IMG/VR virus record: IMGVR_UViG_3300036846_000162 | Span: 1 to 54,904 of that record | DNA from: a virus | Lineage: Duplodnaviria > Caudoviricetes | Strand: one strand, 5' to 3' | Length of the DNA: 54,904 nt | In this document: positions 12,001 through 54,656 of the stretch, piece after piece | Layout: each line of letters begins with the position of its first letter | Numbering within the stretch: position 1 is the first letter of the stretch | The notes under the pieces: model-generated | The model's input: the letters and a program-made list of their open reading frames with translations, nothing else | The model's database searches: none | What the model was told of the DNA's origin: nothing | Made by a program: the position numbers and the translations under genes

Positions 12001-12675
12001 TTCCAGAAGTTCTTAGCTAGTAAGAAGATGCCTGATGGAAAGAATATGTTAGATAGGTTTGTAGAACTTATTAAGCAGACTCTACAGGCTATAGGAGTAA
12101 ACTTTGAAACTAATACAGCGGCAGCACAAGCTATGGACTCCATACTTACTTTCATAAAGGAAGAGAACCAAGCAACAGAACAAGGACCAGCAGGAGATGA
12201 TCTAACAGCAGCCTTCAATCAACAGGCATGGGAAGAAGGTGGCTTTGGAGACCCTGATGAAAATGGTGTAATAGGGTATGATGATGAGGGTAATCCTCTA
12301 TATAAGGACTTCAGCCTATCTCCTAGCATAGAAGGACTATCAGTAGGTAATCCATTCACAGGTAAGTATACTAAAGGAACTATAAATGATAAGGAGAAGG
12401 TAGTAAATGAAGCTCTTACTAATGGTGAGATAGAAAGAGTAAGTGATGATGAGTATAAGTATAAAGGAGTTAGCTATACAAGCCTTGAGGATGTAGGTAA
12501 AGTACTCCTAAAGGATAAGCTACATAACCTTGAGTTTAATGGAGTACCAGTAGATAGTAAACCAGAGGGTAATAGCAGGGAAGAGATAGCAAAGTATAAC
12601 GAAGATATTCCAAAAGTCCAGGAAGGAGAGTTCCCTGGAAAGAAATTAGAAATAAGAGAAGAAAACTGTAGATAA
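1..12675 (+). CDS. Giant virion-associated RNA polymerase polyprotein (crAss-like vRNAP) with C-terminal zincin-like domain; 5'-truncated
   Basis: Frame is open from base 1, so the 133 ATG is probably internal. Catalytic DxDxD motif GLDFDVDK (DFDVDK at 8878-8895) is preceded by FRIPSSG. DAQEY and YIKSS-type motifs are typical of crAss-like RNAPs. HEVVH (11728-11742) plus a later 'INEFMT' give a zincin signature. Confidence 0.9.
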   Translation, partial: ARQTFDQTKEELAGLVNPDGTRKYTDQQVDQFSRAGAEKDFHYNMAMLPLDILSYSAMTFNPISGEAEGMMERGLEKLAGLYGESKLGKAAGWLTTKSLALQSEGIEEGFQDFAQKEGQHYAEVLGGMDDGKSFSQRLGAEVSGSDFWNNYLGGVIGEPLVGGIMEAVNRTERGLKQKAINSVYQKFTSNVGKLDNDTAVKIKQLQAAGNDIQAANMRMNFNVNKTLKALMMDSVSNRDEAYNAHMANRQGLLAELENGKTDGLIDLGHPDSTEASRDIIKSELKQQIADSATIKNIYDDVKSKYNRNFVMKVTSQKFYLQRMLEEMPDIDKSIRDAYSNDANYNSLSAHGKQLADTQYQLAALKNYKNNLSENIKYTTDVDEKQHREDMLDNINKRIDDLVNTHEQIQEDENYNDKDKESDNAALTEMHINPNKDLFWGLSNKVEGDGEIQLGRKDLALWGKDEYVERARNKVFDNALVESEITDAMQEIKSSKISMFEKIGQKGKVAVRAVTSKITSGQRARAEARAEQIKVEQAETAKKNQIVTDTADELKDKENNPVEESEYTANLVQLADMLGSVDMAHVDTASAPPPLSDVLNAPGAVMTFSLSPSVKDADGKEATQEQKNSIRDQVAGLINRMGNPTGNFEDLARDVLKKDGEATTKHVWNLLAYGWEANGKAPADYNAIYNSIFSNHVAELVRIQKELTEQGSKAQELVDQNQWEESGIVNSFNPPGEGGTTGQSHTYNTGVTSRSDPKGQFSTFMVHTKVTETQDGKEVLVDRHFTGAEGMNNKWINSAVLLGDKSRPGMKTIIKVPKDYNSVPVAVFGTDGNYVTFIPFGQYISERFPVDRNTWTAEQEQEYRDKLPMIHYPVGFDNGGKGIMQVHDTGWYHKVRFDEGSPEEMQKAIENVRAIREEVIASWDNDKGKNEVPATVTNVIQTTFDPLKIVVGGGVQGMTLMEANPETTLGLVMDSLDSKDIIIKPGEKFHSSDRILLNSKPQDAIGRIVDIRKFGMKDGVPTYVAFKVTRPKLGKEAKTTVQQLLQYWATRKSGNKDVRDKNNKIKQAVEGLSGFDLSVLNTGFDFNSYLSHFVYVDTLSKKVKGAVRETQDVAKAIHKIATDTLPVGTPYMQSEKYRIIIGQAGIGETGTELWSKENDAAQEAEMMKNLDKLKNTPVTIPEKRRSPDGTEGVVQTKYNSIFDWYEQNLNMKNIAKNRAIVHINEEGKASQAPGGATYTDYLKNNLRTNVKSLNIGTAEKPEWVTNAQPTVTYETDSRLKKMADRSKSDAQVKKDIVDSEEKKPTRGTKLDDALATARTKALNEQLSDLEARYYDLPEGLSENEKADINDRIENGDKEAIKKYTKRILNSEDLKKAQEAYDKGNFVMDEDGETSPKDLEAAALRNASMVTVGNTDMEYDSPEDLFKEYRNGDVEPDFMEAAEERLKEYGLLHLVNYNPNQLELFGEEEGQAKPTTETEVKKEEEEESPEDFLKRMNDFTKNDGGINGALLSPTVMTDAQAKVVENSLTKIAGLSPQEQFETLDFLSNEIIPTIEANGGDISKAEVDKIVQDRFNELLGERAKVAEAEIKKAIAYAEKYPDKAQAFNQMIARLQNTITKISDVGASMDKLMELAYREAKKSSNIKMTKERLQDSIEDDEDRDESGTDDGESEEKRERAFGSEILSENPENKVTKKMRRFFARVIDTEADGTKKQGVFNLPVYVNKDVIVSFLQKMLADTPPSFDAKMGKLATLVETVPWIQEIIDRLKNTSEANKKVFTVCMDNSTTHMSFALVGFNKKTKRWYSKVKSTISAGAVESLRDGWRQNFMSDSSLVQNDAEGDPRIVTDKANQLIQKYRDWKGYDLPTMNASYEDFWKKGIETLKKPNESLNIVPKGAMLDELKSKLKEGEKGKVSIKAGSYIIKDMGKGMYNIRRESEMIGDTKGETMTRMDEFLRAFGITVKPQTLATLYDNGLYHNTRRISPGGLFYSGGADKAGKTNGLFGVLYNNLISLAKNPDTILDEDSQSPLDDTVIESLANLDARYRSDVGPKAFRDGGENYYTVTARKYITDRAIDLVGEDSEMRDTLAKMSFSQHSFLLSLLSDDADTKAKIDKIRAKLQTEQTAENRKQLEADLENAIKNTFRGKFKIAHLGKTAIKQQGKKRMGDNSISAISEVSHEMAKMGFFSDMTQGSVKNNMGLNNYPDSTIPIRVGTMFSPTMSDKTMMTLLTTALLDLGREHLMGDNGQMSQQLVNIIYSQVVKPEIARMLGRASAKASNVENYDEGAFKFYFLTNLNDLTYGEAKLTNLLRTSDTFTTLESVENDSTIMNAIHQSIRDYVEKLSNDKVAKWDKMDNLTKYFDADYVNNEKFEGTDVEKKKQMAMDYVINSMISTANSFMLFGGDPAMYYKDNINKSLINIGKRLANQIAPGAAIAESVGDRYIQLFLKDRKSVAGNIAYINKLYGEGSYEAKQYSSIEASDAQEYTTWKEHLDVLSRLGKTNDYLLDVSQEDIDEAGKLFADPDKYPEESWTEKQREIVNKVTQPMKPVYTYQIPDMEGDFMRTVYIKSSSFPLVPQLTKGMHIDKLRIKMEQLQAPAEKGGLGKNVRASYGTANKVGAITNPSTIWKKDGSIDEDALDKIGESSLEMRREGFRIQQDIPFKTEKNREDRVTLGTQMMKLLFGDEIINATGFNYKGEPMDGRALHQQYTDTISKFVDLKQKQLFDELGLDKIGEPIDKVKTFGKLQKMLQEEADKRDYPLQDIEGLKLIQNPDGTHSFNLPLWISTSSNRYESMLNSIVTNRMVKIKMPGAGYVVGSPEGFIREKVAEEDIDKVLTPEQRSQIIFTSAWNNKELQGQTEEMKDGKTKIKKAQIFVASKLRTPGGDLVDLFQKKDGKYVYLKETNRGFELNEDMFDKDVLSMFTFRIPSSGLQSGTSVEIAGFLPHSVGDLMIVPSNFTKQKGLDFDVDKEQGYSYWTHTDKDGKILRLREEHRNRILKEVDDELKKGKTGELIAKYKEAKGIEKNRAKKVLDQYIASSKFINSLFPDGIKYTEEDFENNKFLANINDQITEKLLQNDIIEVMHSVYSNDNPNLQRKMNKVLNTKEAEGEADYIQGLQGQTQAKGVSYDTILSDEYQKGKLMSGSSGKTGTGAYSLDLVFHSLLQQAYDKSSKDNVRLQKYGKNKTATAFAMRFGRVSSDGTFGRHRTLGVDGRDGDRSITEGLSERQNMAVDNEKLQIMGLLGVDKETMIVDKVLSLLGFDKGEDGHNISFLFLSQPVIKRFNELLRNANSVVAKFDPNVEQKILTKIMGEFNFRMSDMGIDKSAQMSTENMGKAISDGGVDGGLQAAVLKRFIELRAYGYAMMKAQSTLNFKNNSLGRSYFEVLDKNENLGNLLNIEAKDPGTKSSLGTISNLDRLVGEYNTSGGEGFIKVGGDSYIKPTTYIGKMNVMSTVTAVNLWSDYFPYNSFSMRRLFDEIIPQVGNGDNMSATKKVELKQEIFRHLKKYLNTGDTGIVGSSDNVNAERFRLMMDSNGNTSLSSYVKALMQSEDPIVKHYIKSNKLFERLTFTKGDTTKPSTIMYNNAAGEEYDEEYLYQTFSSMLAARDKDGNRIKLPPIGNKEYTVDTLAQDMVAYSMLAASTQQATEFVKYVPMAYLEAIGYTQKMRDLNDSFDNMDTGQILVGEQGPNGEKNAVSAFTMQYLQHNPNRVKYKVDIDDVGTELEGIKLNKDSQEIESFTALSSQDTPDFVSIYNPNIRGEKKFMLFYNDGNKYVRISVLGTYNMDEYDARNNGIGNTIMSLQTNNVAQFYPARRTQTQTFQETGDRFGVSSNDVSTVVGNIVNSELGNMSALAAELSPHISSINGIQYADTYTDHTGKVITNFDGVYDYIDNKIYISSKTSPKMTVDVLASKVMHEVVHGVTMNQFQKYIERKEANGEVKLTADAPIYVQNIARIYNQLRAEEGDAKLAAVRAKVGKQDLTGDEYNTYGLTDINEFMTMALTHKDFQKFLASKKMPDGKNMLDRFVELIKQTLQAIGVNFETNTAAAQAMDSILTFIKEENQATEQGPAGDDLTAAFNQQAWEEGGFGDPDENGVIGYDDEGNPLYKDFSLSPSIEGLSVGNPFTGKYTKGTINDKEKVVNEALTNGEIERVSDDEYKYKGVSYTSLEDVGKVLLKDKLHNLEFNGVPVDSKPEGNSREEIAKYNEDIPKVQEGEFPGKKLEIREENCR

Positions 12676-15600
12676 TGACATGTAAACTAGATGCAAGGAA
12701 GTCTATACTCGATAGAGTAATGGATGAACTAAGAGATGGTCAACATGAGTTCTTAAGAACTGACACAGATACTATCAGGGTTATAGGTGCTAAGAATAAT
12801 GAGACTGCATTCAGGTTAGCAAGGGATATGGTACTACAAGCTAACAGATCTTTCAATGGACACGTTACTGGCTTCATAGACCAGATCAGTAAGTATGACC
12901 CAGTGACTATTACCTTTAAGCCTAGTGATAGGTATGTAGACCATGTATATGATGGAGTAAAGGTACAACAGAAGTATCCTAATCCTGTGCAGGCAGACAT
13001 ACAGGAGACCTATGATGCTAATGAGACTGGACCTAATACCAATGGTATACTGTTATCACCTACCATAGTTAATCAGGGAATAACTAAGAACTTCTATGAT
13101 ACTAGAGTAGCATTATTGAACAGTTACTTTGATAGACTAAGTGTAGTAAAGAATCAGAAGGAGTCAGTAAGTAGAAGGACAGACTTGACTCAGGTAAGAA
13201 AGCAGGAGATGCTAACAGAGCTAGGTAAGAAGCAGAGGTATATTAACAAGCTTATCTATGGTGACAGTACTAAGAATATAAAGGGATTAAAAGAAGATCT
13301 TCAAGACTTAGCATCAGTAGCTGATGTAGCTGCGGTATCTCCATATGTGGAAGCAGAGCTAGCTAGGATAGAGCAGCTAGTGAACTCAAATGATATAGAT
13401 GATTTGAGGGAGGCTGATGGGCTGATAGACTTCTATCGTAGGGCAGGTATATTTGATTGGAACCAACCTGATATAAACCCTATGCTTAGTAGAGCACAGA
13501 TATTTAAGACAGACCCCAATACAGGAGAGCTTACTCCAGAGATAGCAAATCCTATCGTAGAAGCACAGTTTAAAGAGTGGGCTAGTAGAGCTTCTAACAA
13601 TAGGAATAGGCTTAATAAGAAGTATGATGAGTACCTTGTAGAGACAGTCAACTCTAATCCATTAGTACAAAAGGCATTTGGTACTAAGCTATCGTTAAAC
13701 GAGATAACGAGTGCATTAGAAGGACTACCAGATACGGATGTTATATCTATGTGGGTTACTGATGTTACTAGTGGTATCTTCTCACACAATGGAGTACTAC
13801 CACAGGTAATGTTTGCTGAACTACAGAGAGCAATGGAAGAGAAGCAGCAAATATCAAGGAGGATAGCTAGGGAGATAGATGATATAATTCCTGAAGTAGA
13901 GAAGTCTTTAAGTACTCTTGATGGAGGTAAGCACACACTAAGGGGTGCAGGTATCCTAGGGCAAAAGGGGGTAGTATATACTATCTTTAAAGACAAAACT
14001 AAAGATGGTAATGAAACTGGTGGTCTTATAAGAAGGTTTAGCAGTGAGTATAACTCTGATGAGGTTGATAAAGTAAGAGAGTTTGATAAGGCTATGAGGT
14101 CTGGTAGTAGTACAGGAAATAGGAGAAGAGGTATAGATAATTATAGTGAGTGGAGAAGGCAGCATAGTCTTATCCTAGACCTTACTAAGATACCAGAGAT
14201 AGCTAGTGATAGTGCCTATGATGAGTTCAATGCCGCAGGAGATACTGCTTATGTCTCTCAACTCAAGTCAGTATTAGGAGAGAAGGGATACAATGAAGAG
14301 GTAGATAAGATGAAGAACCTTCTTAATAAGTATCTAGCAGCAAAGGAAGGAATTATTGATGGGTTATTAGACGAAGAGAACGTACAAGATGTACAAGACC
14401 TTTCCAATCATTCATTAGATAAGCTACAAAAGTGGGAGAACTGGAATAATCCTGTAAGAGGAGTAGAACATTACAACAGTGCTGGTGGTAGGATAGTTAA
14501 CAAGAAGATAGAGCAGCATGGTATGACATATAATAGCTTCATACCTAGGCAGGATAATGTAAACATACAGTATAGTTCTAAGAATAATAACTGGACTGCC
14601 ACACCTACAGGTGCATCTACAGGGTATTACAATGAGGATTTTAAAAAGATAGAGAAGGATGATGCACTGTACAAGTTCTATAATTTAGCAAAGGAATCTT
14701 GTGAACTGATAAGAGATAACACTCCTTATGAGATACAGCAAGAGATGCCTGCATACACCTTAATGTCTTTACGTAAGACATCAGCAGAGATGCTGCTTGA
14801 TAAGAACCTAGCAGGTATGTCTATGTTATCAGAGGCTCATCAGAACATGATGGATAACATAAGGGGTGCTTTTGGTGTTATGGAACAGTCAGGAATATCT
14901 AATGCTAACTTAGATATAAATGGTAGACCTAATTATACAGTAGAAGATAGTTTCCTACGCTCACATCTAGGAGCAATAAATAGAGAGAAGCTTATACAGA
15001 ATACTAACTTCTCTAATGCTTGGAACAATAATCTTATAGGTAATAACCAGGCTATGGATGTTAATCAAAGGACAGAGATAGCCTTAAGAGACCCACAAAC
15101 AGGGCAGCTTAACTTCAATACAGAGACTCTAAGATTGCTAGCAGAGTTTACCCATACAGATATATCAGATGCAGACATAATTGCAGGAAGGATAGCAGTC
15201 CTTGAGAATAAGATAGGTCAGATGGTAAAGGTAGGTAAGATTATAGGTGACTATGCACAGCATACAATAGTACAGTCACAGTCCTTTGACTTACCTAAGA
15301 TACTAAAGCTCTTCACACATCTTACCATGGAGTATGCTGCAAGGCAGGAAGTACTACCAAAGGTAGAGTTGATGAAGAAGTACTATGATGGTATCAGACA
15401 GCCAGAGACTAACAATATATCTAAACCTATACTCAACAAGGTAAATGGTACATTCCAAAAGGATACCCTAAGACCTAGAGCTATGCTACAGATGGCTAGT
15501 CAGTTTGATAGAACATTTCTAGGAAAAGTAGGAGAGAAGCACTTAGGAGAATGGGGTAAGGAGACTAAGACATTAACACCGGCAGCAGAGACTAAGATTA

Positions 15601-17597
15601 ATACCAAGATAGCAGAGTTAGACAGGAAGATAGAGAATCTACCTGCTAATTCACCTGAAGCAGCAAGGTTAAAGAGGGATAAGCACAAGCTATATGCTAG
15701 TAAACTAATACCTAGGTTTGGTACTAAGATATACTCATCAGAAGAGAAGGTTAAGTTGGGAGAGTTACAAGAACTCAAAGAAAAGAATCCTACTGCTCCC
15801 ATAGTGGAGGATTTAGAAAAGCAGATGAAGGGGTTAGGAAAAACTAGGACAGGATCAGCTTTCCTTAATAACTTCTTGAGCTTTATTAATGTACTGAAGT
15901 TAGGTTACAATGTAGGTTCAGGTGTTACCAACTACCTTGAAGGGCTAGTAAGTAACATGACATTAGCTAGTCAGTATGGTATGAATGAGGAGATATTCCC
16001 TGCCTATAAGATAATGAGAGCTAGTAGGATGAAGAACATATCTACTAAACTTATAAGCAAGGACAGTGTAGCATATAAGACTAGGGCATTAGCAGATATG
16101 TTCAATGTAGTAGTAGATAGTAGGAGTGACCTGCAGAAATCCTCACGTAAGAGCTTCAGTAATAAGCTAGAGTGGTTAAGATGGTCAGCACTCAATCAGA
16201 GGGTAGAGTATGTTAATCAAGGAGTTCTCATGATAGCATCACTACGCTCTACAAAGATAAAAGGTATAGATGCTAGTGGCAATGAGGTAGAGAGTAGTGT
16301 ATGGGATGCTTACAACAATGATGGTAGTCTTAAGGATGAGTTCAGGGTTAAACCAGGACAGACTTATACACAAGACCAAGAGGATATGCTTAAGGGTAAT
16401 GTACATAACTGGGAGAACCTATCAGGAGACCAGTACAATATCTTTAAGTCTACCCTAGACAACATGATAATAAGAGGTCATGGTAATTACTCACAGATGA
16501 GAGGTATGTTAGCTAAGACTGGTTGGCAGAAGATATTCCTTATGTTTAAGACATACTTACCAGAAGCATTAGCATGGAGGTTTGCTAAGGAGAGACCAGA
16601 TATATTGTCAGGAGAAAAAAGTGTCAAGGGAAGATATAGAAGCTACACCCCAGGAGCAGCTGCATTGCATGGTGCAGTTCTTGGGGCAGCTTCCTTTGGT
16701 TTTGTAGGTCTAGGAGTAGGAGCAGCAGCAGGGTACATAGCAGCAAGGATAGGTAACAGAGGAATAAGTACAGGTACTTCTGCTATCAAAGATATGTTAC
16801 AAACAGGTAAAGCTTTAGCTCTTAAGGCAATAGGTATGCCGATAAATATGACAGCAGGAAGAGAGATAGTAAAGGATACTAACTATTATGATAGCTTGGT
16901 AAATGGTACTAGCTTTACTACACAGGATGCACAGAATTTAAAGGCTAATGTAGCAGACATAGCAATGCAACTTACATGGTTGCTAGGGATACTAGTACTC
17001 AAAGGATTACTATGGGATGATGATGATAAGCCAGATGATACAGAGAGAATAGCACATAACATAGCCGTCAACAAGTTGATGCAGTTAAGCACACAGGCAG
17101 CAGCATATACCTCTCTGTCTGGTATTTACAACTCTACGATAGGTAGTATAGGACTTGTGAAGTTCTATGATGATTGTACTAAGGAGATAACGGCTACTGA
17201 GAAGATATTTCAGGGTGATGATGTGATAACGACAGGAAAGAATGCAGGAGAAAGCAGAGTATGGAATGGTGCTAAGAGGTTACTACTACCTGGTATCTTT
17301 AAGGATAGGTTAGGAGGATTTGCTCAAGATGCAGCAAAGGTATACACAGAGAGTCCTTTCCAACCTTACTTTAGGGGTGAGGCATACAAGGATGAGAAAA
17401 GAAATAAGGGTTTAAGAGCAGAGAGAAGAAAGGAATTAGAAGATGATCCAGGAATAAAGGCAATAGAAGACGATCATGAAAGGGATAAGGAAATTAAGAA
17501 GACACTGGACTATGAGCTACCTTCACCTACTCGTCTAAAGAAGATGGGTTACACTCGCGACCAGTACGAACAGCAAGTCTTACCAAATGAGGATTAG
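12675..17597 (+). CDS. Large virion cargo/ejection protein with membrane-spanning segments
   Basis: 1640 aa, translationally coupled (TAATG) to the vRNAP gene. Hydrophobic/Gly-rich stretches GAVLGAASFGFVGLGVGAAAGYIAA and WLLGILVLKGLLW. Position next to vRNAP is typical of crAss-like cargo genes. Confidence 0.7.
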   Translation: MTCKLDARKSILDRVMDELRDGQHEFLRTDTDTIRVIGAKNNETAFRLARDMVLQANRSFNGHVTGFIDQISKYDPVTITFKPSDRYVDHVYDGVKVQQKYPNPVQADIQETYDANETGPNTNGILLSPTIVNQGITKNFYDTRVALLNSYFDRLSVVKNQKESVSRRTDLTQVRKQEMLTELGKKQRYINKLIYGDSTKNIKGLKEDLQDLASVADVAAVSPYVEAELARIEQLVNSNDIDDLREADGLIDFYRRAGIFDWNQPDINPMLSRAQIFKTDPNTGELTPEIANPIVEAQFKEWASRASNNRNRLNKKYDEYLVETVNSNPLVQKAFGTKLSLNEITSALEGLPDTDVISMWVTDVTSGIFSHNGVLPQVMFAELQRAMEEKQQISRRIAREIDDIIPEVEKSLSTLDGGKHTLRGAGILGQKGVVYTIFKDKTKDGNETGGLIRRFSSEYNSDEVDKVREFDKAMRSGSSTGNRRRGIDNYSEWRRQHSLILDLTKIPEIASDSAYDEFNAAGDTAYVSQLKSVLGEKGYNEEVDKMKNLLNKYLAAKEGIIDGLLDEENVQDVQDLSNHSLDKLQKWENWNNPVRGVEHYNSAGGRIVNKKIEQHGMTYNSFIPRQDNVNIQYSSKNNNWTATPTGASTGYYNEDFKKIEKDDALYKFYNLAKESCELIRDNTPYEIQQEMPAYTLMSLRKTSAEMLLDKNLAGMSMLSEAHQNMMDNIRGAFGVMEQSGISNANLDINGRPNYTVEDSFLRSHLGAINREKLIQNTNFSNAWNNNLIGNNQAMDVNQRTEIALRDPQTGQLNFNTETLRLLAEFTHTDISDADIIAGRIAVLENKIGQMVKVGKIIGDYAQHTIVQSQSFDLPKILKLFTHLTMEYAARQEVLPKVELMKKYYDGIRQPETNNISKPILNKVNGTFQKDTLRPRAMLQMASQFDRTFLGKVGEKHLGEWGKETKTLTPAAETKINTKIAELDRKIENLPANSPEAARLKRDKHKLYASKLIPRFGTKIYSSEEKVKLGELQELKEKNPTAPIVEDLEKQMKGLGKTRTGSAFLNNFLSFINVLKLGYNVGSGVTNYLEGLVSNMTLASQYGMNEEIFPAYKIMRASRMKNISTKLISKDSVAYKTRALADMFNVVVDSRSDLQKSSRKSFSNKLEWLRWSALNQRVEYVNQGVLMIASLRSTKIKGIDASGNEVESSVWDAYNNDGSLKDEFRVKPGQTYTQDQEDMLKGNVHNWENLSGDQYNIFKSTLDNMIIRGHGNYSQMRGMLAKTGWQKIFLMFKTYLPEALAWRFAKERPDILSGEKSVKGRYRSYTPGAAALHGAVLGAASFGFVGLGVGAAAGYIAARIGNRGISTGTSAIKDMLQTGKALALKAIGMPINMTAGREIVKDTNYYDSLVNGTSFTTQDAQNLKANVADIAMQLTWLLGILVLKGLLWDDDDKPDDTERIAHNIAVNKLMQLSTQAAAYTSLSGIYNSTIGSIGLVKFYDDCTKEITATEKIFQGDDVITTGKNAGESRVWNGAKRLLLPGIFKDRLGGFAQDAAKVYTESPFQPYFRGEAYKDEKRNKGLRAERRKELEDDPGIKAIEDDHERDKEIKKTLDYELPSPTRLKKMGYTRDQYEQQVLPNED

Positions 17598-21128: not shown

Positions 21129-21284
21129 TTAATACTCCCATCCTTTGTGTTTAATGTTAGGTACTATACCTATAGGTACTCTACGTATCTTCCTATTACG
21201 TTGATTCTTTAGCCATTTCCTTGAGTAAGACCTTCTTCCTAAAAATCTTTCAAGGTGTTCTATCTTCTGTAAACATAAGCTCAT
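21129..21284 (-). CDS. Small basic hypothetical protein (51 aa, not in ORF track)
   Basis: GGAGGTTAAT-ATG; MSLCLQKIEHLERFLGRRSYSRKWLKNQRNRKIRR...; exactly fills the gap. Confidence 0.55.
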   Translation of the reverse strand: MSLCLQKIEHLERFLGRRSYSRKWLKNQRNRKIRRVPIGIVPNIKHKGWEY

Positions 21285-25910: not shown

Positions 25911-25932
25911 AGTACTTTGTTTTATTCGATTA

Positions 25933-25950
25933 TTAGGGGGGGTTGATAGG
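25933..25950 (-). promoter_or_regulatory. Conserved 18-bp motif, copy 1 (putative phage RNAP promoter)
   Basis: + strand TTAGGGGGGGTTGATAGG, about 23 nt upstream of the nuclease start. Confidence 0.7.
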
Positions 25951-39244: not shown

Positions 39245-39461
39245 CCTGACCTCCTTCTGTTAATTGCTCTGGTTCATCTGCCTTCCATTCTTCAATCTTT
39301 CCTTCATAGATTGAATCATCAGGATTTAACTTGTAAGTAATACCGTTGGCTGCTGCATCTTCTTCAATGCTGCCTAGCAGTTGGTCCAATATCTGCTTAT
39401 ATGTATTACCTATGGCTACAATTTGTTCGCCTTCCTCTGTGACCTTTGTTAATGTAATCAT
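39231..39461 (-). CDS. Small acidic hypothetical protein
   Basis: Directly downstream of motif copy 2; AAGGAG upstream. Confidence 0.6.
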   Translation of the reverse strand: MITLTKVTEEGEQIVAIGNTYKQILDQLLGSIEEDAAANGITYKLNPDDSIYEGKIEEWKADEPEQLTEGGQDEEQ

Positions 39462-39501
39462 TATTTCTCCTTTTATTTTATATGTTATTCTTACTCGTTA
39501 A

Positions 39502-39519
39502 TTAGGGGGGGTTGATAGG
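39502..39519 (-). promoter_or_regulatory. Conserved 18-bp motif, copy 2
   Basis: + strand TTAGGGGGGGTTGATAGG. Confidence 0.7.
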
Positions 39520-39520
39520 A

Positions 39521-39811
39521 TTAGCCTTCGGACTCCACAGGCTGTAACTCCTCTTTAGCTTTAATGAGTTTTATAAGTAGTCCGTTAGCTAAAGAAACAT
39601 CATTACGATATTTATCTCTTGTATCTTCAAAACCAGACTTCATTTTAAGATACTGTTCATCATCAGCTAATTTATCTTTTCCTACCATCCTTTCAAGACC
39701 TCCTATTATGAAGTCTAACATATGAGCTTTCTCATCCATCTCTGATGTAGCTCTTTTAAATATTCCGATAATCCTGATTAAGAACTCTGTTTCTTGTTCA
39801 TTTAGTTCCAT
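39521..39811 (-). CDS. Hypothetical protein
   Basis: AAGGAG upstream; helical composition. Confidence 0.6.
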   Translation of the reverse strand: MELNEQETEFLIRIIGIFKRATSEMDEKAHMLDFIIGGLERMVGKDKLADDEQYLKMKSGFEDTRDKYRNDVSLANGLLIKLIKAKEELQPVESEG

Positions 39812-45698: not shown

Positions 45699-45726
45699 AT
45701 TGATGTATTTTAGATTTGCTCCTTAA

Positions 45727-45744
45727 TAAGGGGGGGTTGATAGG
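45727..45744 (-). promoter_or_regulatory. Conserved 18-bp motif, copy 3
   Basis: + strand TAAGGGGGGGTTGATAGG. Confidence 0.7.
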
Positions 45745-46658: not shown

Positions 46659-46803
46659 AGTATATTGTTTTAGTATGGTTTATAAAGTGGGCATGAACTC
46701 AAGATAAAGAGATACGTTCCACTTCAAAGCGTACCTATATTTCTTTTGATTTTCTAACGAGAGGCTTTAAGCCTATTACCATGCATGATATGTTGCACCA
46801 TGA

Positions 46804-46821
46804 TTAGGGGGGGTTGATAGG
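46804..46821 (-). promoter_or_regulatory. Conserved 18-bp motif, copy 4
   Basis: + strand TTAGGGGGGGTTGATAGG. Confidence 0.7.
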
Positions 46822-46944
46822 AACCGCTAGTGATGGCTTTACGGTTTATTTAAACCGAGGGTTGTTTGTAGTAGATGTACATTGAAGGCTAAAATATACA
46901 TACAACATAAAGTTAGAACGTTTAAAAATATTTTTTGTTAAAGA

Positions 46945-46996
46945 TTTGGAAAAAGCTATTTCCTGAACTATCTTGCAATAGAAGTTCTTTGAAATA
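46945..46996 (+). promoter_or_regulatory. Bacteroidota-like sigma promoter followed by a boxA-like element
   Basis: TTTG-N20-TATCTTGC (imperfect TAnnTTTG), then GAAGTTCTTTGAAATA. Confidence 0.5.
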
Positions 46997-47727
46997 GACT
47001 AAACGTAGATATGGAGGTTCTAATATCCCTTTACATGAATATGTAGAGATGAACATATTAAAACCATAAAGATCAGTAATTACCAGTATATACTAGTAAA
47101 GACAGATGAACTCAAAAGAAATATATATCCGCTTTGATAGAACTAAACTATATCTCTTAGCTATTTTAGACATAAAGCACGACTCCTGCGCCCATCTTTA
47201 GCCCGAAAGGGGGTTTCTATGGATTGCGAGAGGAGAGAAAGCTGAATAAGTTTGCAACTGCTACCTAATACGGTAAGCTAAAGCAGTACTAATAACCTTC
47301 ATCGGTTGAGAGCCACTACCTAAGACTAGGACCTGGACTTATAGTCATACTTAGAGATGGTAGGTGAAGAAGCTGGCAGACAAATAGGCTGGAAAGCTTC
47401 ATTATAATAACCACCTTATCTGAAGGTAATAAGATAGGGTTAGGGTAGGGGAAACAAGGACACTGGATGAGAGGCTGCAAGGCAGCTTCTTAAGAAACCT
47501 TGATTTCCTTGTATCTCTTGTATAATCTCAATATGTATGCGGGTTCAGCGGGTTCTTTGCCTCAAATCCTCGCAAATAGCTTCTAATTGAAATACAGATA
47601 GTCAAATTCAGTGTTTTACGGCTTACCCTTCTCATTTTGGGTAATAGGTGAACTAAATAGGAGTAATAAGTTTTCTAACTGACCACTCTTTTAGCAATTA
47701 CAAGGACTATATCCATAGTCCTTTCTT
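46980..47727 (+). ncRNA. Candidate large structured non-coding RNA (family unassigned)
   Basis: No ORF >=60 aa; nested helices, GNRA-type loops and G-U pairs favouring + sense; promoter upstream and terminator-like hairpin AAGGACTAT/ATAGTCCTT at 47702-47723. Confidence 0.55.
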
Positions 47728-47808
47728 ATAAACTCATTTGTGGTATTCCTTTGTTCTCCTTCTTTTATTTGTCTTTTTTTGCTAGTAGTAGGGTACTAAA
47801 ACAGTACC

Positions 47809-48300
47809 CTATTTTATTGCATTTAATTGTGCATCACTTCCATGCAGTTCTAATGCTTTATTATTGTATGCTATTGCAGCTTCTACTTCTGAATTAAACA
47901 TACCTAGATAATGATACTTTTTATTAAAGTGTATTTGAGCTATCCATTTATTACCTGACTTATACACTCCTCTATAAATAGAGCTAGTTCCATCTCTTTT
48001 AGCTCTATTTATTTTATTCTGTGATGAAGTAGCTATTCTAAGATTACTCTTTTGATTGTTTAAGCCGTCTCTATCTATATGATCTACTTCTTCTGTAGAG
48101 TCAATAACTCTCATGATCTGTCTATGCATTCTAATCCTTGAAGGATAACCTATTTTTACTTCCTCTTCTGTAGCTACTCTTATTGCATATACATTATCAT
48201 TGAATCTTGTTAAGTACCATATGGACTGCTCTAGTTCTATATAATCCTCATCGTCTACTATCACTATTCCTCTTCTATTAGCTAATTCTATCTCTTTCAT
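47809..48300 (-). CDS. HNH endonuclease with AP2 domain (paralog of 26440-26982)
   Basis: VDDEDY, MHRQI, VDHIDRDGLNNQKSNLR, SIYRGVY..KWIAQI..LGMFNSEVEAAIAYN. Confidence 0.9.
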   Translation of the reverse strand: MKEIELANRRGIVIVDDEDYIELEQSIWYLTRFNDNVYAIRVATEEEVKIGYPSRIRMHRQIMRVIDSTEEVDHIDRDGLNNQKSNLRIATSSQNKINRAKRDGTSSIYRGVYKSGNKWIAQIHFNKKYHYLGMFNSEVEAAIAYNNKALELHGSDAQLNAIK

Positions 48301-48318
48301 AATTTTTACTTTAGTAAG

Positions 48319-48346
48319 AAAGGCACCCTTTAACAGGTGCCTTTTT
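48319..48346. terminator. Hairpin terminator, possibly bidirectional
   Basis: AAAGGCACC/GGTGCCTTT stem with flanking A/T runs. Confidence 0.6.
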
Positions 48347-48370
48347 GCTATGGATATATGACTGACAGAA

Positions 48371-48541
48371 CTACTTGTTCTTGCTGAAGGCTGCTAATAC
48401 TAATCCTCCTACTATCAATGCTAATCCTCCTACTACTATGAAAGCTATTGTCTTAGCCGCTTTCTCTGCTACTTCTGTGTTCCCTACTACTAATGATACT
48501 ATTACTACTACCACTAATACGAACATTGTCAATCTAATCAT
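48371..48541 (-). CDS. Small two-TM membrane protein (56 aa, not in ORF track)
   Basis: MIRLTMFVLVVVVIVSLVVGNTEVAEKAAKTIAFIVVGGLALIVGGLVLAAFSKNK. Confidence 0.6.
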   Translation of the reverse strand: MIRLTMFVLVVVVIVSLVVGNTEVAEKAAKTIAFIVVGGLALIVGGLVLAAFSKNK

Positions 48542-48557
48542 TACTGCTTATTTTTGG

Positions 48558-49241
48558 TTATAAATGAACTTGTGTCTTGAACTCCGGTCTTATTCGCATA
48601 TCAGGTGTAACCCAGTCTCTTAAACCTATCCTACCATCCACCTTTACTAATACACCACTCTTTTTTCCTTCCTCTGATGATTTACAGTTGGATGCCCAAC
48701 AGTTATTAATGATTCCCCATCTGATATAACCTGGTCGCCACTCTCTTCCTAACTCTTTAAACTTAGCCTCAACATCATAGGTATCTAGTACCTTTTCAAA
48801 TAGGTCTTCTGGCTTAATGAATTTCTTCTCGATATCCAATATCTCTGCTGCATGTTCTGTCCACTGTACTCTACCCTCAGCTTTAGGATTACCTCCATGA
48901 GTTAATTTCTTCTTCTCTCTCGGCTTCATATCATTATGTGACTCCGCTCTTAATATTCTCATACCCTTTTCCATAGGTATGCCATGCTTCACTTTGCTAT
49001 ACACTTCTAACATTAACTTATCTGCTGCTACTCTATCTACTAGCATATCGTGGTCTTTCTTAAGAGTTAAATATGCCTCATAATAGTCCTTTAATGTAGG
49101 AGCTAATTCTGAGATCTTTTTCATGTTATCGTTAATCCTTGTTTGAGCCTCTTCAATCAGATAGGCTGATTGAGAGTCTGTAAGAGTCTTTATTTTTGAC
49201 TCTTGTGGGGGTAATAATAACCCATTTGTTTTCTGTTGCAT
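48558..49241 (-). CDS. Hypothetical protein (coiled coil plus possible winged helix)
   Basis: 227-aa ORF. Confidence 0.6.
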   Translation of the reverse strand: MQQKTNGLLLPPQESKIKTLTDSQSAYLIEEAQTRINDNMKKISELAPTLKDYYEAYLTLKKDHDMLVDRVAADKLMLEVYSKVKHGIPMEKGMRILRAESHNDMKPREKKKLTHGGNPKAEGRVQWTEHAAEILDIEKKFIKPEDLFEKVLDTYDVEAKFKELGREWRPGYIRWGIINNCWASNCKSSEEGKKSGVLVKVDGRIGLRDWVTPDMRIRPEFKTQVHL

Positions 49242-49258
49242 ATAGTCCTTATTTTAAT

Positions 49259-49480
49259 TTACTTTGTAGGCTTACTATATATGAAGTATTTATCTGTGTG
49301 ATACAAATATACAGTATCATTCTGTCTTATTGCTATCATTTTGATAAATGAATCAGTAGGTGCTCTATCCAAATCTGCAGGATAGTCAATAAATATAGTA
49401 CGCTGCTTATTCCTAAAGCCTGCTGCTACTATTGTTACTGCTATTAGTCCTAATGCTATTACTAATGTTGTCTTTCTCAT
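49259..49480 (-). CDS. Small secreted/membrane protein
   Basis: Signal-like N-terminus; downstream of motif copy 5. Confidence 0.6.
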   Translation of the reverse strand: MRKTTLVIALGLIAVTIVAAGFRNKQRTIFIDYPADLDRAPTDSFIKMIAIRQNDTVYLYHTDKYFIYSKPTK

Positions 49481-49520
49481 TTTCTTTGTTTGTTGGTTTG
49501 TATGTTATTGTGTTCCTTGA

Positions 49521-49538
49521 TTAGGGGGGGTTGACAGG
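49521..49538 (-). promoter_or_regulatory. Conserved 18-bp motif, copy 5
   Basis: + strand TTAGGGGGGGTTGACAGG. Confidence 0.7.
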
Positions 49539-49643
49539 ATATGCTCTCAGGGTGGCAAATATTGAGGGGCAGAGAACTACCCCTCGTAATTGTGTCTAAG
49601 AATGGAATTTCCATCTTAACAGAATATGCCAACAAAAAAGAAC

Positions 49644-50198
49644 TTATGCTGCTATTTCTAATGGATTTATCCTTACTATCTCTTTGCCTATACTCTCTGC
49701 ATACCTTATACAGTTGGCTGTACCTCCGCCTGTACCATCCCATACTGCTATAAGCCTATCACAGTTATTGACCATCCACTCATTACGCTTTTGCATTTTA
49801 TGACCACTGAACTCTGTTCTAGGCTCTGATAAGAACTTACCTACATTGATATCCTCAAATACCTTGCCAGTATCTGTGCATACTATCTTACTTGCTAACT
49901 TTAACAAGCTGTAGTACTCATCTATACTGCTTTGTACCCATCTATTCTCCTGTCCTCTAAAAGGTACTGCTGCTATAAATGGTATGTGTAACTCTACAGC
50001 TATTCTTGCAAATAGTGTATCTATACCTAAAGCCATGCCGGTAATAAGACGTAGTTCTTCATTCTTTTCCATACATTCTACTGCATATATTTCCACTATG
50101 CTCTTTATCTCTTCCTTAATAGCTATTATTAATGGGCTAATTAGGTTATAGTCATTACCTAACTTATTAGGACGGTGTCCTGTGATTGCGATCTTCAT
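49644..50198 (-). CDS. SLOG superfamily protein, YspA/DUF1273-like
   Basis: MKIAITGHRP, ITGMALGID, AVPF, RNEWMV...AVWDG.GGGTANC. Confidence 0.85.
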   Translation of the reverse strand: MKIAITGHRPNKLGNDYNLISPLIIAIKEEIKSIVEIYAVECMEKNEELRLITGMALGIDTLFARIAVELHIPFIAAVPFRGQENRWVQSSIDEYYSLLKLASKIVCTDTGKVFEDINVGKFLSEPRTEFSGHKMQKRNEWMVNNCDRLIAVWDGTGGGTANCIRYAESIGKEIVRINPLEIAA

Positions 50199-50230
50199 AT
50201 ATCTGTTTATATTGGTTACAAAATAAATTT

Positions 50231-50857
50231 CAATGTATATAAGCGCATCTCCACTGCTTTGCTGTAAGGGTGTCTTACATCAGTCAGAGTATATACATCG
50301 GGAAATACTCGCCACTACCCTTAGCAGGAGGCGACAGTATCTATCCCATTAACATAGGGTGCTAACTGCCTGTTTATATAGTAACCCTAACCATATTTAT
50401 CAGGACTTGTTTGTGCTCTTTATTCCTTAGCATTAGTTGTAGCCACCTATTCAGTATGTTGACCTGACTAGTTAAGACTTCTTTGCAACAGCTACAACTT
50501 TATGCTTTGGAAACTATCTACCATGCCAGTACATGTTACAGAGGTTCTTTTAATCACTCTCAGAGTGCCCTCATATAGACAATAGTAAAAGGATGGGGTG
50601 CATTGCTCATAACCTAACCCCGTTATGTACTACCCCACCCTAATAAGTATAACCAGTAGATTGTTATATCATGTTTTCTTCCATACTCATGAGGTACAGA
50701 TTGTTTCTTGTTTTCTTCCACTGGTTAATGCGGTTAGTAACTGGTCTTGTGGTTAGCTAATGATGTTGCTATAGCCAAACGTGTGCATACGATAGTTCTC
50801 TCCTCAACATCTGGGTTTTCCTACCATGCGTTCATCTCCAGAGTTTCCAGTTACTAA
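50231..50857 (-). ncRNA. Candidate structured RNA / tandem hairpin array
   Basis: ORF-free tract tiled by about 8 consecutive long imperfect stem-loops; + strand A-C mismatches convert to G-U pairs on the - strand. Confidence 0.5.
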
Positions 50858-50862
50858 TAAGT

Positions 50863-51189
50863 TTAAGATACTCCTTCATCTTCTTCTGGTATACCTGGAA
50901 ATGGTGGTACGAGTGGGTCAATTCCTCCACCATACACATCATTGTACAGGCTTTGTATATCAGTGGTTAGCTGATTAGCTCTGTCTGTCATCTCTTTAGC
51001 ATAGTCATGACTGGCATCCTGAAACTTAAGGGCTGCTGCTTTTACTTCAGGATATACTTCAGCATAATCATTTGCTGCATCTACTACAGCACCTTTATAG
51101 GTATCTGTGTAAGTACCTGCATCTGTCCTGAATCCATCCATCAGATCTTTTAGTCCATCTGTGAACTTCTGTGCTTGGTCTAGTGACAT
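50863..51189 (-). CDS. Acidic helical hypothetical protein
   Basis: 108 aa, Asp/Glu-rich, Pro-rich tail. Confidence 0.65.
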   Translation of the reverse strand: MSLDQAQKFTDGLKDLMDGFRTDAGTYTDTYKGAVVDAANDYAEVYPEVKAAALKFQDASHDYAKEMTDRANQLTTDIQSLYNDVYGGGIDPLVPPFPGIPEEDEGVS

Positions 51190-51224
51190 ATAGTTAATTT
51201 TAAATTGTGAGCTACAAAGATAAG

Positions 51225-51515
51225 CTATCTTTGGCTTGCAACAAATTTATTTATAGTATCATTGTCAATGAGTATCCAATCTCCGTTTCTTATACCCCAG
51301 GTTATCTTCTCACCTGCTCTGGCTCTTTGTGCAAATCTGCTTGTCTTGGTCTTATTCTGCTCCATAAACTTGATTACTTCATCTCCATCCTTATAGAATG
51401 TAGACCTACAGCCATTAGCTCCTGTTGTTATGTTGAGCTGCTGCTTATTGACTGTGAGTGAAGTTACTGATGCATCATGTAATGCATTGTGGATTGTGAT
51501 ATATTCCTGTTTCAT
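51225..51515 (-). CDS. Hypothetical protein
   Basis: ATGA-coupled ORF. Confidence 0.6.
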   Translation of the reverse strand: MKQEYITIHNALHDASVTSLTVNKQQLNITTGANGCRSTFYKDGDEVIKFMEQNKTKTSRFAQRARAGEKITWGIRNGDWILIDNDTINKFVASQR

Positions 51516-51751
51516 ATTGTTGTTTTTAGTTTTATTACTCTGAATCCATATAAGTATCTACTATTAGGCTGTTTAATCAGTGCATCTATATAGCTACTTC
51601 TTCCTTTTTTATCTGTATAATCTAAGCCTATTTTTGCTACTTCTATATCTCCTCTCATTATGCCTAGCTTCCTCTTAACTCTAGCCCTTTTAACTGTTAT
51701 AGTATCACCTACTTTCATTGGTCTGGTAGTACTAGGTTTATAGTGAAACAT
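51512..51751 (-). CDS. Small basic hypothetical protein
   Basis: About 26 nt downstream of motif copy 6. Confidence 0.6.
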   Translation of the reverse strand: MFHYKPSTTRPMKVGDTITVKRARVKRKLGIMRGDIEVAKIGLDYTDKKGRSSYIDALIKQPNSRYLYGFRVIKLKTTI

Positions 51752-51776
51752 ATAAATACTTTTAATTGTTCCATAA

Positions 51777-51794
51777 TGAGGGGGGGTTGATAGG
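51777..51794 (-). promoter_or_regulatory. Conserved 18-bp motif, copy 6
   Basis: + strand TGAGGGGGGGTTGATAGG. Confidence 0.7.
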
Positions 51795-51842
51795 TATTGC
51801 TAGTTGTAATGCAATAGCAGTTTTACCTGCTATTGCTATTTA

Positions 51843-52139
51843 CTACTGCTCACCTACTCTCTTGGCTAATGCCTCACCTTCCTCTGCTACTTTATCAACA
51901 AACAATCTTGTTTCTACAAACTCCATAGATATATCTACAAGTTTGCCTATGGTATCGGCTCTTTCCAATTCATCTACTAACTGTTCTCTGATAGTACCTA
52001 AAGTGGCACTAGATAATGAATTAAGAGCTACCTTAATAAGCCTGTCATAGAAGTTCTGTTCAACCTCTACTATTTGGGTTCCTTTCTGTTGACCCATTGC
52101 TTCGCTTAATGCTGCATGTAATGTTGTGTTGCTGGACAT
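51843..52139 (-). CDS. Hypothetical protein
   Basis: 98-aa helical ORF. Confidence 0.6.
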   Translation of the reverse strand: MSSNTTLHAALSEAMGQQKGTQIVEVEQNFYDRLIKVALNSLSSATLGTIREQLVDELERADTIGKLVDISMEFVETRLFVDKVAEEGEALAKRVGEQ

Positions 52140-52168
52140 ACTGTTGTTTTATTTGTTTAAACGGTTAT

Positions 52169-52612
52169 TTAATTTTGTTTACTGCCATCACTACAGATAG
52201 CATCAAAGATATAGCTTCCAATGCTCTCAGGTATTACATCTGCATACACAACATAATCGCTGTAATCATCTGAATTGATTATATTACCCTTAGAATCTCT
52301 TACTGCCATAGCCCTAATGCCTATTGTTTGATCACTGCATTTAATTGAGTACTTTATTAGGTGTATTACATTGTAGTATATCCTACCTTTATGGACATAC
52401 TTAGATTCCAGTTCTTTAAACCAGCAGTCTTTGGTCTCTCCATTGTCTATGACTCCGCCATCCTGCATATAGTACTTATCTGCACCATCTAAAGTCTGTG
52501 TTACAGCAGTCCATCCATCACCTGGTTCTCTGTCGGCTGTCCTTGTTTGAGCCTGTATCGTAGTGCTATACGCTAATAGTACTGCTACTATTAAAATGAT
52601 TGCTCTTTTCAT
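52169..52612 (-). CDS. Secreted protein, surface-adhesin E-like fold
   Basis: Signal peptide; YSIKC...VIPESIG...AIC pattern. Confidence 0.55.
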   Translation of the reverse strand: MKRAIILIVAVLLAYSTTIQAQTRTADREPGDGWTAVTQTLDGADKYYMQDGGVIDNGETKDCWFKELESKYVHKGRIYYNVIHLIKYSIKCSDQTIGIRAMAVRDSKGNIINSDDYSDYVVYADVIPESIGSYIFDAICSDGSKQN

Positions 52613-52615
52613 TGT

Positions 52616-52801
52616 TTATATTTTATAGTGAATGTATACTGTGTACCTGTCCTCATCTACTGTGCTAATAGCGTGAGTATAAGAGATGCTGATAATCTCA
52701 AGGCTACGCATATGCTTTATTTGCATTGCATCTAACCAATCATTGATATATTCTTGCAACTCTCTTAAACTCACACTATTCATTAGTTCTACCTTGTTCA
52801 T
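52616..52801 (-). CDS. Small hypothetical protein
   Basis: ATGA-coupled; LQEYINDWL pattern. Confidence 0.55.
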   Translation of the reverse strand: MNKVELMNSVSLRELQEYINDWLDAMQIKHMRSLEIISISYTHAISTVDEDRYTVYIHYKI

Positions 52802-53252: not shown

Positions 53253-53452
53253 TGCCCACTGTGATGATACATCGCATCACTCCGGCTCATACTCAGAGAT
53301 TGTGGTTGTTGCCTCTAGTATGCTGACTAACCTAAGTATTACAATACTCCACTTACCTACGATGAGAGGTGCACTTCATCTATAAGTTTTAAAACGCTTC
53401 TCTGCAAGTAATACATTAGGTCTTATTAGTCAGTTTTGGTTGCTGCCCAAAA

Positions 53453-53470
53453 TAAGGGGGGGTTGAAAGG
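53453..53470 (-). promoter_or_regulatory. Conserved 18-bp motif, copy 7
   Basis: + strand TAAGGGGGGGTTGAAAGG. Confidence 0.7.
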
Positions 53471-53912: not shown

Positions 53913-54155
53913 CTACAAAGAGAACTTCACGTCCAGTGGTTTCACATTCACTATACAGCCGTCAGTGAACTTATCTTCTTCGTACATATACCTAACAGGT
54001 AATGCTGGATTGAGATCCTGCTGTACTTTAGAGGTTCCTTTAGCATGAATAGCAAATGTAGTACCCTTTGCAGGGTTACTTACAACGTCAATCTTATCTA
54101 TGCCTAACTCAGCTTTAAACTGGTCAAGCGTGATAAATTTCATCTGTTGTGTCAT
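53913..54155 (-). CDS. Small hypothetical protein (paralog of 54411-54656)
   Basis: Start reassigned to MTQQMKF by alignment with its paralog. Confidence 0.7.
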   Translation of the reverse strand: MTQQMKFITLDQFKAELGIDKIDVVSNPAKGTTFAIHAKGTSKVQQDLNPALPVRYMYEEDKFTDGCIVNVKPLDVKFSL

Positions 54156-54227
54156 ACATCTGATATTTATAAACCCATGATTCGCTACTCTGTATCTATA
54201 CACAGTAACTAGCAATATCGCTCTAAA

Positions 54228-54245
54228 TTAGGGGGGGTTGAAAGG
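54228..54245 (-). promoter_or_regulatory. Conserved 18-bp motif, copy 8
   Basis: + strand TTAGGGGGGGTTGAAAGG. Confidence 0.7.
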
Positions 54246-54410: not shown

Positions 54411-54656
54411 TTACAAGCTGAACTTAACTTGCAGAGGCTTTACATTAACGAAGCACCCCTTCTCGAAGCCCTCGGTCTCGCTATACATGAAGCGTACCGG
54501 CTCGCTAACAGTTAGGGTAGCCTGAGCTTTATAGGTCTTGCCACCGCATATGGCAAATAACTTGGTAGGGTCTTTGAATGTGAAGTCAATAGCTTGCCCA
54601 ACAGTGTTGGTTACAGACTTGAATGCATCTACCGTAAGAAATGTGAACTGTGACAT
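54411..54656 (-). CDS. Small hypothetical protein
   Basis: 81 aa; ends GCFVNVKPLQVKFSL like its paralog. Confidence 0.7.
   Translation of the reverse strand: MSQFTFLTVDAFKSVTNTVGQAIDFTFKDPTKLFAICGGKTYKAQATLTVSEPVRFMYSETEGFEKGCFVNVKPLQVKFSL

Follow-up and report, generated by a model that had tools for sequence, protein, structure and literature searches.

The locus described here is a 664-nt tract (50199-50862) that separates the stop codon of a gene for an acidic 108-aa orphan protein from the start codon of a SLOG/YpsA-like gene in a phage genome (Table 1). The window, that is, the whole stretch of DNA that was analysed, is the complete record IMGVR_UViG_3300036846_000162 of 54,904 bases, which originates from soil metagenomes and has a completeness estimate of 57%. 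Bases 1-17597 are occupied by two giant open reading frames (ORFs) on the plus strand (>4180 aa and 1640 aa), and the minus strand carries everything from 17.5 kb to the window end, including genes for DNA polymerase A, helicases, primase, an rIIA-like gene and Sak4, with a block of small orphan genes from ~45 kb onward. Two HNH endonuclease genes are present in the window, and the genome is tightly packed except for three gaps.

The giant ORF matches phrog_16227 (E 2.7e-203) and shares 30-31% identity (tblastn) with a "virion structural protein" of the Flavobacterium phages FpV4 and Fpv1-3; records of Cellulophaga and Bacteroides phages are also found among its 56 tblastn matches. The genome of FpV4 has the same layout as the window. 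Judged from the giant-ORF similarity and this common layout, the phage is an uncultivated soil virus distantly related to the FpV4/phi14:2 (crAss-like) group.

Several minor features of the minus strand may be recorded here. In the replication block (17.5-45 kb) many genes have AAGGAGG-type ribosome-binding sites, and the small genes of 45-54.9 kb mostly have A-rich leaders without a ribosome-binding site. Two neighbouring small genes (53913-54215 and 54411-54656) look paralogous, as they have in common a near-identical ...NVKPL.VKFSL tail. In addition, an HNH endonuclease gene (47809-48300) is immediately followed by a second ORF-free tract of ~1 kb (46822-47808), which shows no purine skew, no Rfam match, no codon periodicity and no tmRNA and for which the plus strand gives the more stable fold.

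Table 1. Features of the tract, its neighbours and the 19-nt motif. Probabilities are those of the closing pairs, computed with 100-nt flanks on each side; the z values favour the units, which are delimited by their own stems.
Feature	Position	Strand	Properties
SLOG/YpsA-like gene, 184 aa, directly downstream of the tract	49644..50198	-	PF06908, E 1.1e-08; phrog_289
ORF-free untranslated tract	50199..50862	-	every frame closed by stop codons; codon periodicity absent; no match to Rfam families, tRNA or tmRNA
U1, 9-bp A/T closing stem, context-dependent	50233..50298	-	z -1.77; pair probability 0.12
U2, 15-bp interrupted hairpin	50300..50347	-	z -2.56; outer pairs 0.76-0.89
U3, 6-bp closing stem, chance level	50355..50389	-	z -0.53; pair probability 0.0
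U4, domain closed by 5+10 bp	50429..50506	-	z -2.29; pair probability 0.9-1.0
U5, weakly defined domain	50513..50586	-	z -1.00; pair probability 0.47-0.59
U6, G+C-rich stem-loop followed by UUUU	50591..50640	-	-22.2 kcal/mol; z -3.60; probability ~1.0
U7, closing stem of 8 exact bp (11 with one mismatch)	50650..50727	-	z -3.05; probability 0.74-0.9
U8, 11-bp exact closing stem, context-dependent	50734..50857	-	z -1.62; probability 0.21 with flanks
Orphan gene for an acidic 108-aa protein, adjoining the tract upstream	50863..51189	-	no Pfam or PHROG family
Motif copy heading the tract's putative unit	51776..51794	-	CCTnTCAACCCCCCCTnAT, at most 3 mismatches; hairpin just upstream (51811-51836), z -6.84
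Next motif copy, after the SLOG gene, putative unit end	49520..49538	-	CCTnTCAACCCCCCCTnAT, at most 3 mismatches; preceding hairpin 49564-49585, z -3.30
Further motif copies	25932-25950, 39501-39519, 45726-45744, 46803-46821	-	CCTnTCAACCCCCCCTnAT, at most 3 mismatches
Further motif copies	53452-53470, 54227-54245	-	CCTnTCAACCCCCCCTnAT, at most 3 mismatches

Non-coding status of the tract

The preliminary description of this DNA had called the region non-coding, and every line of evidence agrees with it. No ORF in the tract exceeds 43 aa, and each of the six frames of 50150-50900 contains 12-23 stop codons of all three kinds, with at least four each of TAA, TAG and TGA in every minus-strand frame. 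The codon-phase chi-square of the tract ranges from 2.0 to 5.7, compared with a shuffle mean of 5.9 and with a median of 15.9 (10th percentile 10.5) in 48 coding windows. A hidden gene is therefore rejected on account of stops of every kind in every frame, and so is a protein gene read under another genetic code, as each minus-strand frame is closed by all three kinds of stop. Nor does the tract represent a recently decayed gene, because it bears no trace of codon periodicity.

Known structured RNAs were likewise searched for. ARAGORN reported no tRNA gene at the default, 90% or 75% threshold, which rules against a tRNA array or its decayed remnant, and no tmRNA even at 75%; there was also no match to the tmRNA model RF00023 at E up to 10, in searches that recovered both positive controls, phi14:2 and FpV4. 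The covariance models of Rfam 15 gave no match at the gathering score anywhere in the window, and at E up to 10 the region 50100-50960 returned only two chance matches to miRNA models (E 1.5 and 5.7), so that GOLLD, ROOL, group I and II introns, retrons and CRISPR RNAs are rejected at both thresholds. Direct repeats are irregularly spaced and occur in two copies only. The tract is not a CRISPR array, because no repeat family exceeds two copies, in keeping with the original remark that the units share no repeat.

A recurrent motif and the putative transcription unit

A 19-nt motif, CCTnTCAACCCCCCCTnAT, was found by reading the sequence upstream of minus-strand genes and occurs in eight copies at three mismatches or fewer, all on the minus strand, with none expected from 100 shuffles. 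The distance from the motif end to the start codon is 11-39 nt in five of the eight copies, and the other three are followed by long leaders of 144, 256 and 270 nt. Strong compact hairpins precede four copies (z -3.3, -4.1, -5.1 and -6.8), and the remaining four have no strong preceding hairpin (z +1.2 to -1.8). These punctuating hairpins have short loops, stems of 9-12 bp and z values down to -6.8, and are unlike the units of the tract, which are long-range closings around loosely paired interiors. The motif is probably a phage-specific promoter, and the hairpins before its copies would mark the ends of preceding transcription units. Outside this genome the motif gave three single matches in IMG/VR and ten scattered single matches in bacterial genomes, which form no cluster in either set and are taken as chance.

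The tract lies between two copies of the motif and contains none itself, and for this reason it very probably shares a minus-strand transcript with the gene for the acidic 108-aa protein, as the preliminary description had suggested. A scan of the minus strand over 48300-52800 yielded no terminator-like site. The Bacteroidota -7 box has the form TAnnTTTG; a near match precedes the SLOG start. The 16-mer at this position has no second copy in the window, and TAnnTTTG occurs about as often on one strand as on the other (37 versus 36 occurrences). Furthermore, the 5' coding end of the SLOG gene (50129-50178) is complementary to several sites in the tract, of which the single 9-10-mers occur at about chance frequency; ACTTATTAG, for example, has four matches versus 1.55 expected, a count reached by 8 of 100 shuffles.

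Hairpin units and tiling

The region 50231-50857 had been presented at the outset as fully tiled by back-to-back hairpins, and all eight closing stems listed for it (U1-U8) are indeed found in the sequence where they had been placed. The exact stems include two of 9 bp (50233/50298 and 50435/50499), one of 8 bp (50650/50727, extended to 11 bp with one mismatch) and one of 11 bp (50734/50857). In the context of the flanking sequence U2, U4, U6 and U7 are robust, with closing-pair probabilities of about 0.9 or more, and the closing stems of three of the eight units, U1, U3 and U8, dissolve, which makes "fully tiled" an overstatement. U6 is the best-defined unit. Its stable stem is followed by four U, but its loop of 32 nt is too long for the terminator scan, which did not flag it; U6 is possibly a partial terminator. 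U7 contains an exact 12-mer twice, 37 nt apart (50672-50683 and 50709-50720).

Tiling was quantified by dynamic programming over exact closing stems with a span of 30-130 nt in the region 50231-50857, and its coverage is 0.81 when the minimum stem length is 6 bp, 0.70 when it is 7 bp and 0.53 when it is 8 bp. Dinucleotide shuffles reach 0.64 +/- 0.11 at 6 bp, with 5 of 200 attaining 0.81, and the observed tiling is attained by 16 of 5000 shuffles at 7 bp and by 4 of 5000 at 8 bp. Native segments of the same genome tile equally well: the one beginning at 39501 reaches 0.69 with the 7-bp and the 8-bp minimum alike, and those beginning at 21201 and 11001 reach 0.68 with the 7-bp minimum. Exact inverted repeats of at least 8 bp number four in the tract and 124 in the window, and 26 of 543 segments have at least four. 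The hairpin tiling is therefore only partly above chance: closing stems of at least 7-8 bp surpass the shuffles, but two or three other places in the genome do equally well. The near-top rank of the region among ~87 segments is weak evidence, because the preliminary description could choose its region from the whole window.

Exact inverted repeats cluster most densely elsewhere in the window, at 39300-39811, where six repeats of at least 8 bp (tiling 0.69) span a motif copy, its 256-nt leader and a 96-aa gene.

In the minimum free energy (MFE) structure of the minus strand, 619 of the 664 nt of the tract (93%) are enclosed in domains of at most 130 nt and only two pairs are longer, a modularity that is matched by none of 150 shuffles and by none of 164 native 664-nt segments. 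Moving the frame by 100-200 nt lowers this value to 75-80%, and part of the modularity therefore stems from the alignment of the frame to the unit boundaries.

Folding relative to the genome background

The tract is thermodynamically ordinary. Its minus strand has an MFE of -170.8 kcal/mol, which is matched by 9 of 150 shuffles (z -1.71); a separate set of 20 shuffles gives z -1.56, and the plus strand reaches -154.5 kcal/mol (z -0.29). When the complete window is scanned on both strands with RNALfold, the mean minimum z of the tract is -2.23, compared with -2.08 +/- 0.61 over all 664-nt segments, 43% of which are as low as the tract, and in a GC-corrected scan of 150-nt segments the tract ranks about tenth on the minus strand. 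The mean positional entropy is 0.99 in the tract versus 0.93 in the flanking coding sequence. Taken singly, and with values that are favoured by the delimitation of each unit by its own stem, U6 and U7 have the lowest z and U3 and U5 the highest. The structural case as first put forward is not supported: with z -1.7 for the whole tract and local z at background, the region comes close to folding no better than shuffled sequence.

The preliminary description had further argued that A-C mismatches on the plus strand become G-U pairs on the minus strand, in agreement with the direction of the flanking genes. This argument does not hold, since the minus-over-plus advantage of the tract, -16.3 kcal/mol, is average for the minus-coding block (-16.1 +/- 17.3 kcal/mol), in which 30 of 55 segments show an advantage as large, and the strand advantage changes sign in the plus-coding block. 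Because the asymmetry stands at the block mean, it is attributed to a genome-wide effect of composition (a purine-rich sense strand) and not to selection for pairing. A special RNA in the tract is no more than a possibility, because the folding of its hairpins does not surpass that found elsewhere in the genome, and the hairpin pattern alone is insufficient to carry a claim of structured RNA.

Search for relatives of the locus

Judging by the sequences retrieved, no relative found carries the tract. The 108-aa protein matched only itself among 5.8 billion proteins, blastn of the tract against 50,697 phage records gave no match, and IMG/VR yielded no relative through the neighbouring 108-aa and 227-aa proteins and, through the DNA polymerase, only one 6-kb contig with 37% identity. 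IMG/VR provided 19 loci that encode a SLOG homolog, and in none of them is the SLOG gene preceded by 400 nt or more free of ORFs; the upstream ORF ends within ~110 nt of the homolog in 18 of them, and the remaining one (L016) is unclear. A metagenome search with the SLOG protein returned 92 relatives, of which 80 were kept and one, L080, was inspected. The SLOG homolog of L080 is the closest (65% identity), has an ORF directly upstream and lies among unrelated, non-syntenic neighbours; its DNA likeness of 71-73% is confined to the gene and ends at the SLOG start codon.

Among public runs, contigs of X2, a second soil run, over 49914-50959 carry the tract without any difference, and the same run has 13 differences clustered at 51327-51462. 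Run X1 may be the source sample and is hence not independent, and run X3 contains a small share of the window, covering only 48500-48796. No RNA run is among the public runs listed as containing the stretch. In one contig of X2, which also carries the 13 differences at 51327-51462, the 264 bases 51507-51770, which encompass the 79-aa gene, are replaced by 27 other letters, and this contig looks like a strain variant that lacks the gene.

Precedents in other phages

The gaps of FpV4 and phi14:2 constitute the nearest precedent by position and kind, not by homology, because they have no sequence in common with the tract: blastn (word size 7) and nhmmer --max comparisons of the tract with both gaps gave nothing below E 0.17, and the likeness to the FpV4 gap is limited to short A/T-rich words. 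FpV4 (NC_041872.1), which belongs to the nearest cultured relatives, has at the same position of its small-gene block a 2.3-kb gap (record 81439-83767) with no ORF longer than 67 aa; like the tract, this gap is mostly unassigned non-coding sequence, but it differs in containing a tmRNA.

In the Cellulophaga phage phi14:2, 1.7 kb between g004 and g006 are gene-free, earlier gene calls in this interval having been withdrawn. According to Drobysheva et al., both junctions, g004-g005 and g005-g006, give rise from the earliest time point onward to transcripts that run in the same direction as the genes, and the intergenic RNAs are among the most abundant early RNAs (bioRxiv 10.1101/2020.03.07.982082). 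The tract resembles these regions in being gene-free over at least 0.5 kb, in its place in a small-gene block and in lying on the gene strand, and the giant virion proteins of phi14:2 are convergent with the replication block, as they are in the window. There are also differences: sequence similarity is lacking, one of the two phi14:2 regions is a tmRNA gene whereas the window has none, and transcription is shown for phi14:2, whereas for the tract we infer it. Stretches of 0.5-2 kb without genes are present in the small-gene blocks of three distant members of the group, namely the soil phage, FpV4 and phi14:2.

Other systems are more remote. GOLLD and ROOL are large, ornate, phage-associated RNAs with many hairpins in a size class of ~600-800 nt; the tract resembles them in size class, in its multiple hairpins and in its occurrence in a phage, but differs in having no covariance-model match (E up to 10) and in folding that does not rise above background. 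The early transcript of T7 contains intercistronic RNase III hairpins, and the tRNA cluster of T4 encodes the stable RNAs C and D. These too are structured non-coding segments within early polycistronic phage transcripts, but they are single compact sites or adjacent to tRNAs, unlike the 664-nt tract, which contains no tRNA.

Possible nature of the tract

The tract is tentatively interpreted, with somewhat less than even confidence, as a co-transcribed, untranslated and structured element, either a hairpin-chain spacer or a long non-coding RNA. On this reading, the soil phage would make an early or middle polycistronic transcript of which the tract is an untranslated part. Transcription would begin with the motif copy at 51794, proceed through the genes of 79, 96 and 108 aa, continue through the 664 nt of the tract and the SLOG/YpsA-like gene, and stop near the hairpin and the next motif copy at ~49585-49520. 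The minus-strand RNA of the tract may then fold into a chain of local stem-loops, of which U2, U4, U6 and U7 are predicted to be the robust ones. Such a segment would uncouple the SLOG gene from the upstream genes, and the G+C-rich U6 hairpin with its U-run might damp read-through. The tract could also persist as a stable RNA, comparable to the abundant early intergenic RNAs of phi14:2. Its transcription, stability and any regulatory effect are thus proposed from sequence features and from this precedent.

Nearly as likely, and equally to be held with reserve, is an inert spacer left over from gene loss or cassette shuffling beside a mobile SLOG gene, in which transcription would be passive or absent and the hairpins would be typical of the composition. 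The folding results are what such a spacer would give, with local z at the genome background, a compositional strand asymmetry, positional entropy no lower than in the flanks and equal tiling in the segments at 39501, 21201 and 11001. The gene content is also compatible with it, as the SLOG gene has the appearance of a travelling cassette, its likeness to the L080 homolog being restricted to the gene amid unrelated neighbours, as SLOG homologs elsewhere lack the tract, and as two HNH endonuclease genes are at hand. However, dense packing is the rule in phage genomes and applies to this one outside its three gaps; the absence of codon periodicity argues against a recently decayed gene as the origin; exact closing stems of at least 8 bp surpass all but a few shuffles; and the tract is identical in soil run X2, in contrast with the differences clustered nearby. 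If the tract is an inert spacer, it serves as a warning that a "wall of hairpins" and a G-U strand bias can arise from composition alone, an effect that is possible in a purine-skewed genome such as that of this phage.

A bolder form of the structured reading, which we consider rather unlikely, sees in the tract a lineage-specific, multi-domain, early non-coding RNA of ~0.65 kb that would be the counterpart of the abundant early RNA of phi14:2 and whose stable units U2, U4, U6 and U7 would target factors of the host, for instance by serving as a decoy for proteins of defence or of RNA decay. If the tract were indeed an RNA of the phi14:2 type, such RNAs would appear to be general but fast-evolving in the early programmes of crAss-like phages, and the early intergenic RNAs of these phages would merit a directed search.

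It had also been suggested that RNase III-style cleavage of a precursor from the tract yields several small RNAs, or that its RNA captures defence proteins of the host as a decoy or sponge, which appears improbable. The units are separate and four of them are stable, and the tract would belong to an early operon beside an acidic orphan protein, both of which would suit such a function; on the other hand, no unit is repeated, no small-RNA, CRISPR, retron or toxin-antitoxin family of Rfam is matched at E up to 10, and the stem interiors are large and weakly paired, whereas RNase III prefers long coaxial duplexes. For this precursor or decoy, as for a single large ornate RNA, the searches produced nothing in favour, with neither an Rfam match (E up to 10) nor a homolog. 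Least probable of all is a DNA-level element (a replication origin, a recombination site or a protein-binding control region acting through inverted repeats in duplex or cruciform DNA), for although the enrichment of exact inverted repeats is strand-symmetric and two exact 12-mers occur within U7, the tract is not A+T-rich (G+C 0.39 versus 0.37), has no iteron array beyond two copies, shows no turn in cumulative GC skew at 50 kb and bears no copy of the motif that marks the units.

tmRNA genes in the gaps of phi14:2 and FpV4

The g005-g006 region of phi14:2, described as a "long non-coding RNA" region, is a tmRNA gene (NC_021806; L103 4031-4502, plus strand) with a canonical T-arm and acceptor end, for which ARAGORN gives the tag peptide GSSVQKLAMVA and RF00023 scores 46.0 bits (gathering score 47; E 7e-16). 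The annotation of NC_021806 lists no tmRNA feature within 1-9000, and the preprint mentions tmRNA only in its methods (bioRxiv 10.1101/2020.03.07.982082). In the accessible portion of the literature searched, no link between the g005-g006 RNA and tmRNA was found. The unannotated 2.3-kb gap of FpV4 likewise includes a tmRNA (L102 35948-36362, minus strand), which scores 58.2 bits with RF00023 (gathering score 47) and is missed by ARAGORN. Near this gap, a partial match to a group I intron is present at L102 34039-34197 on the minus strand, with 39 bits (gathering score 50).
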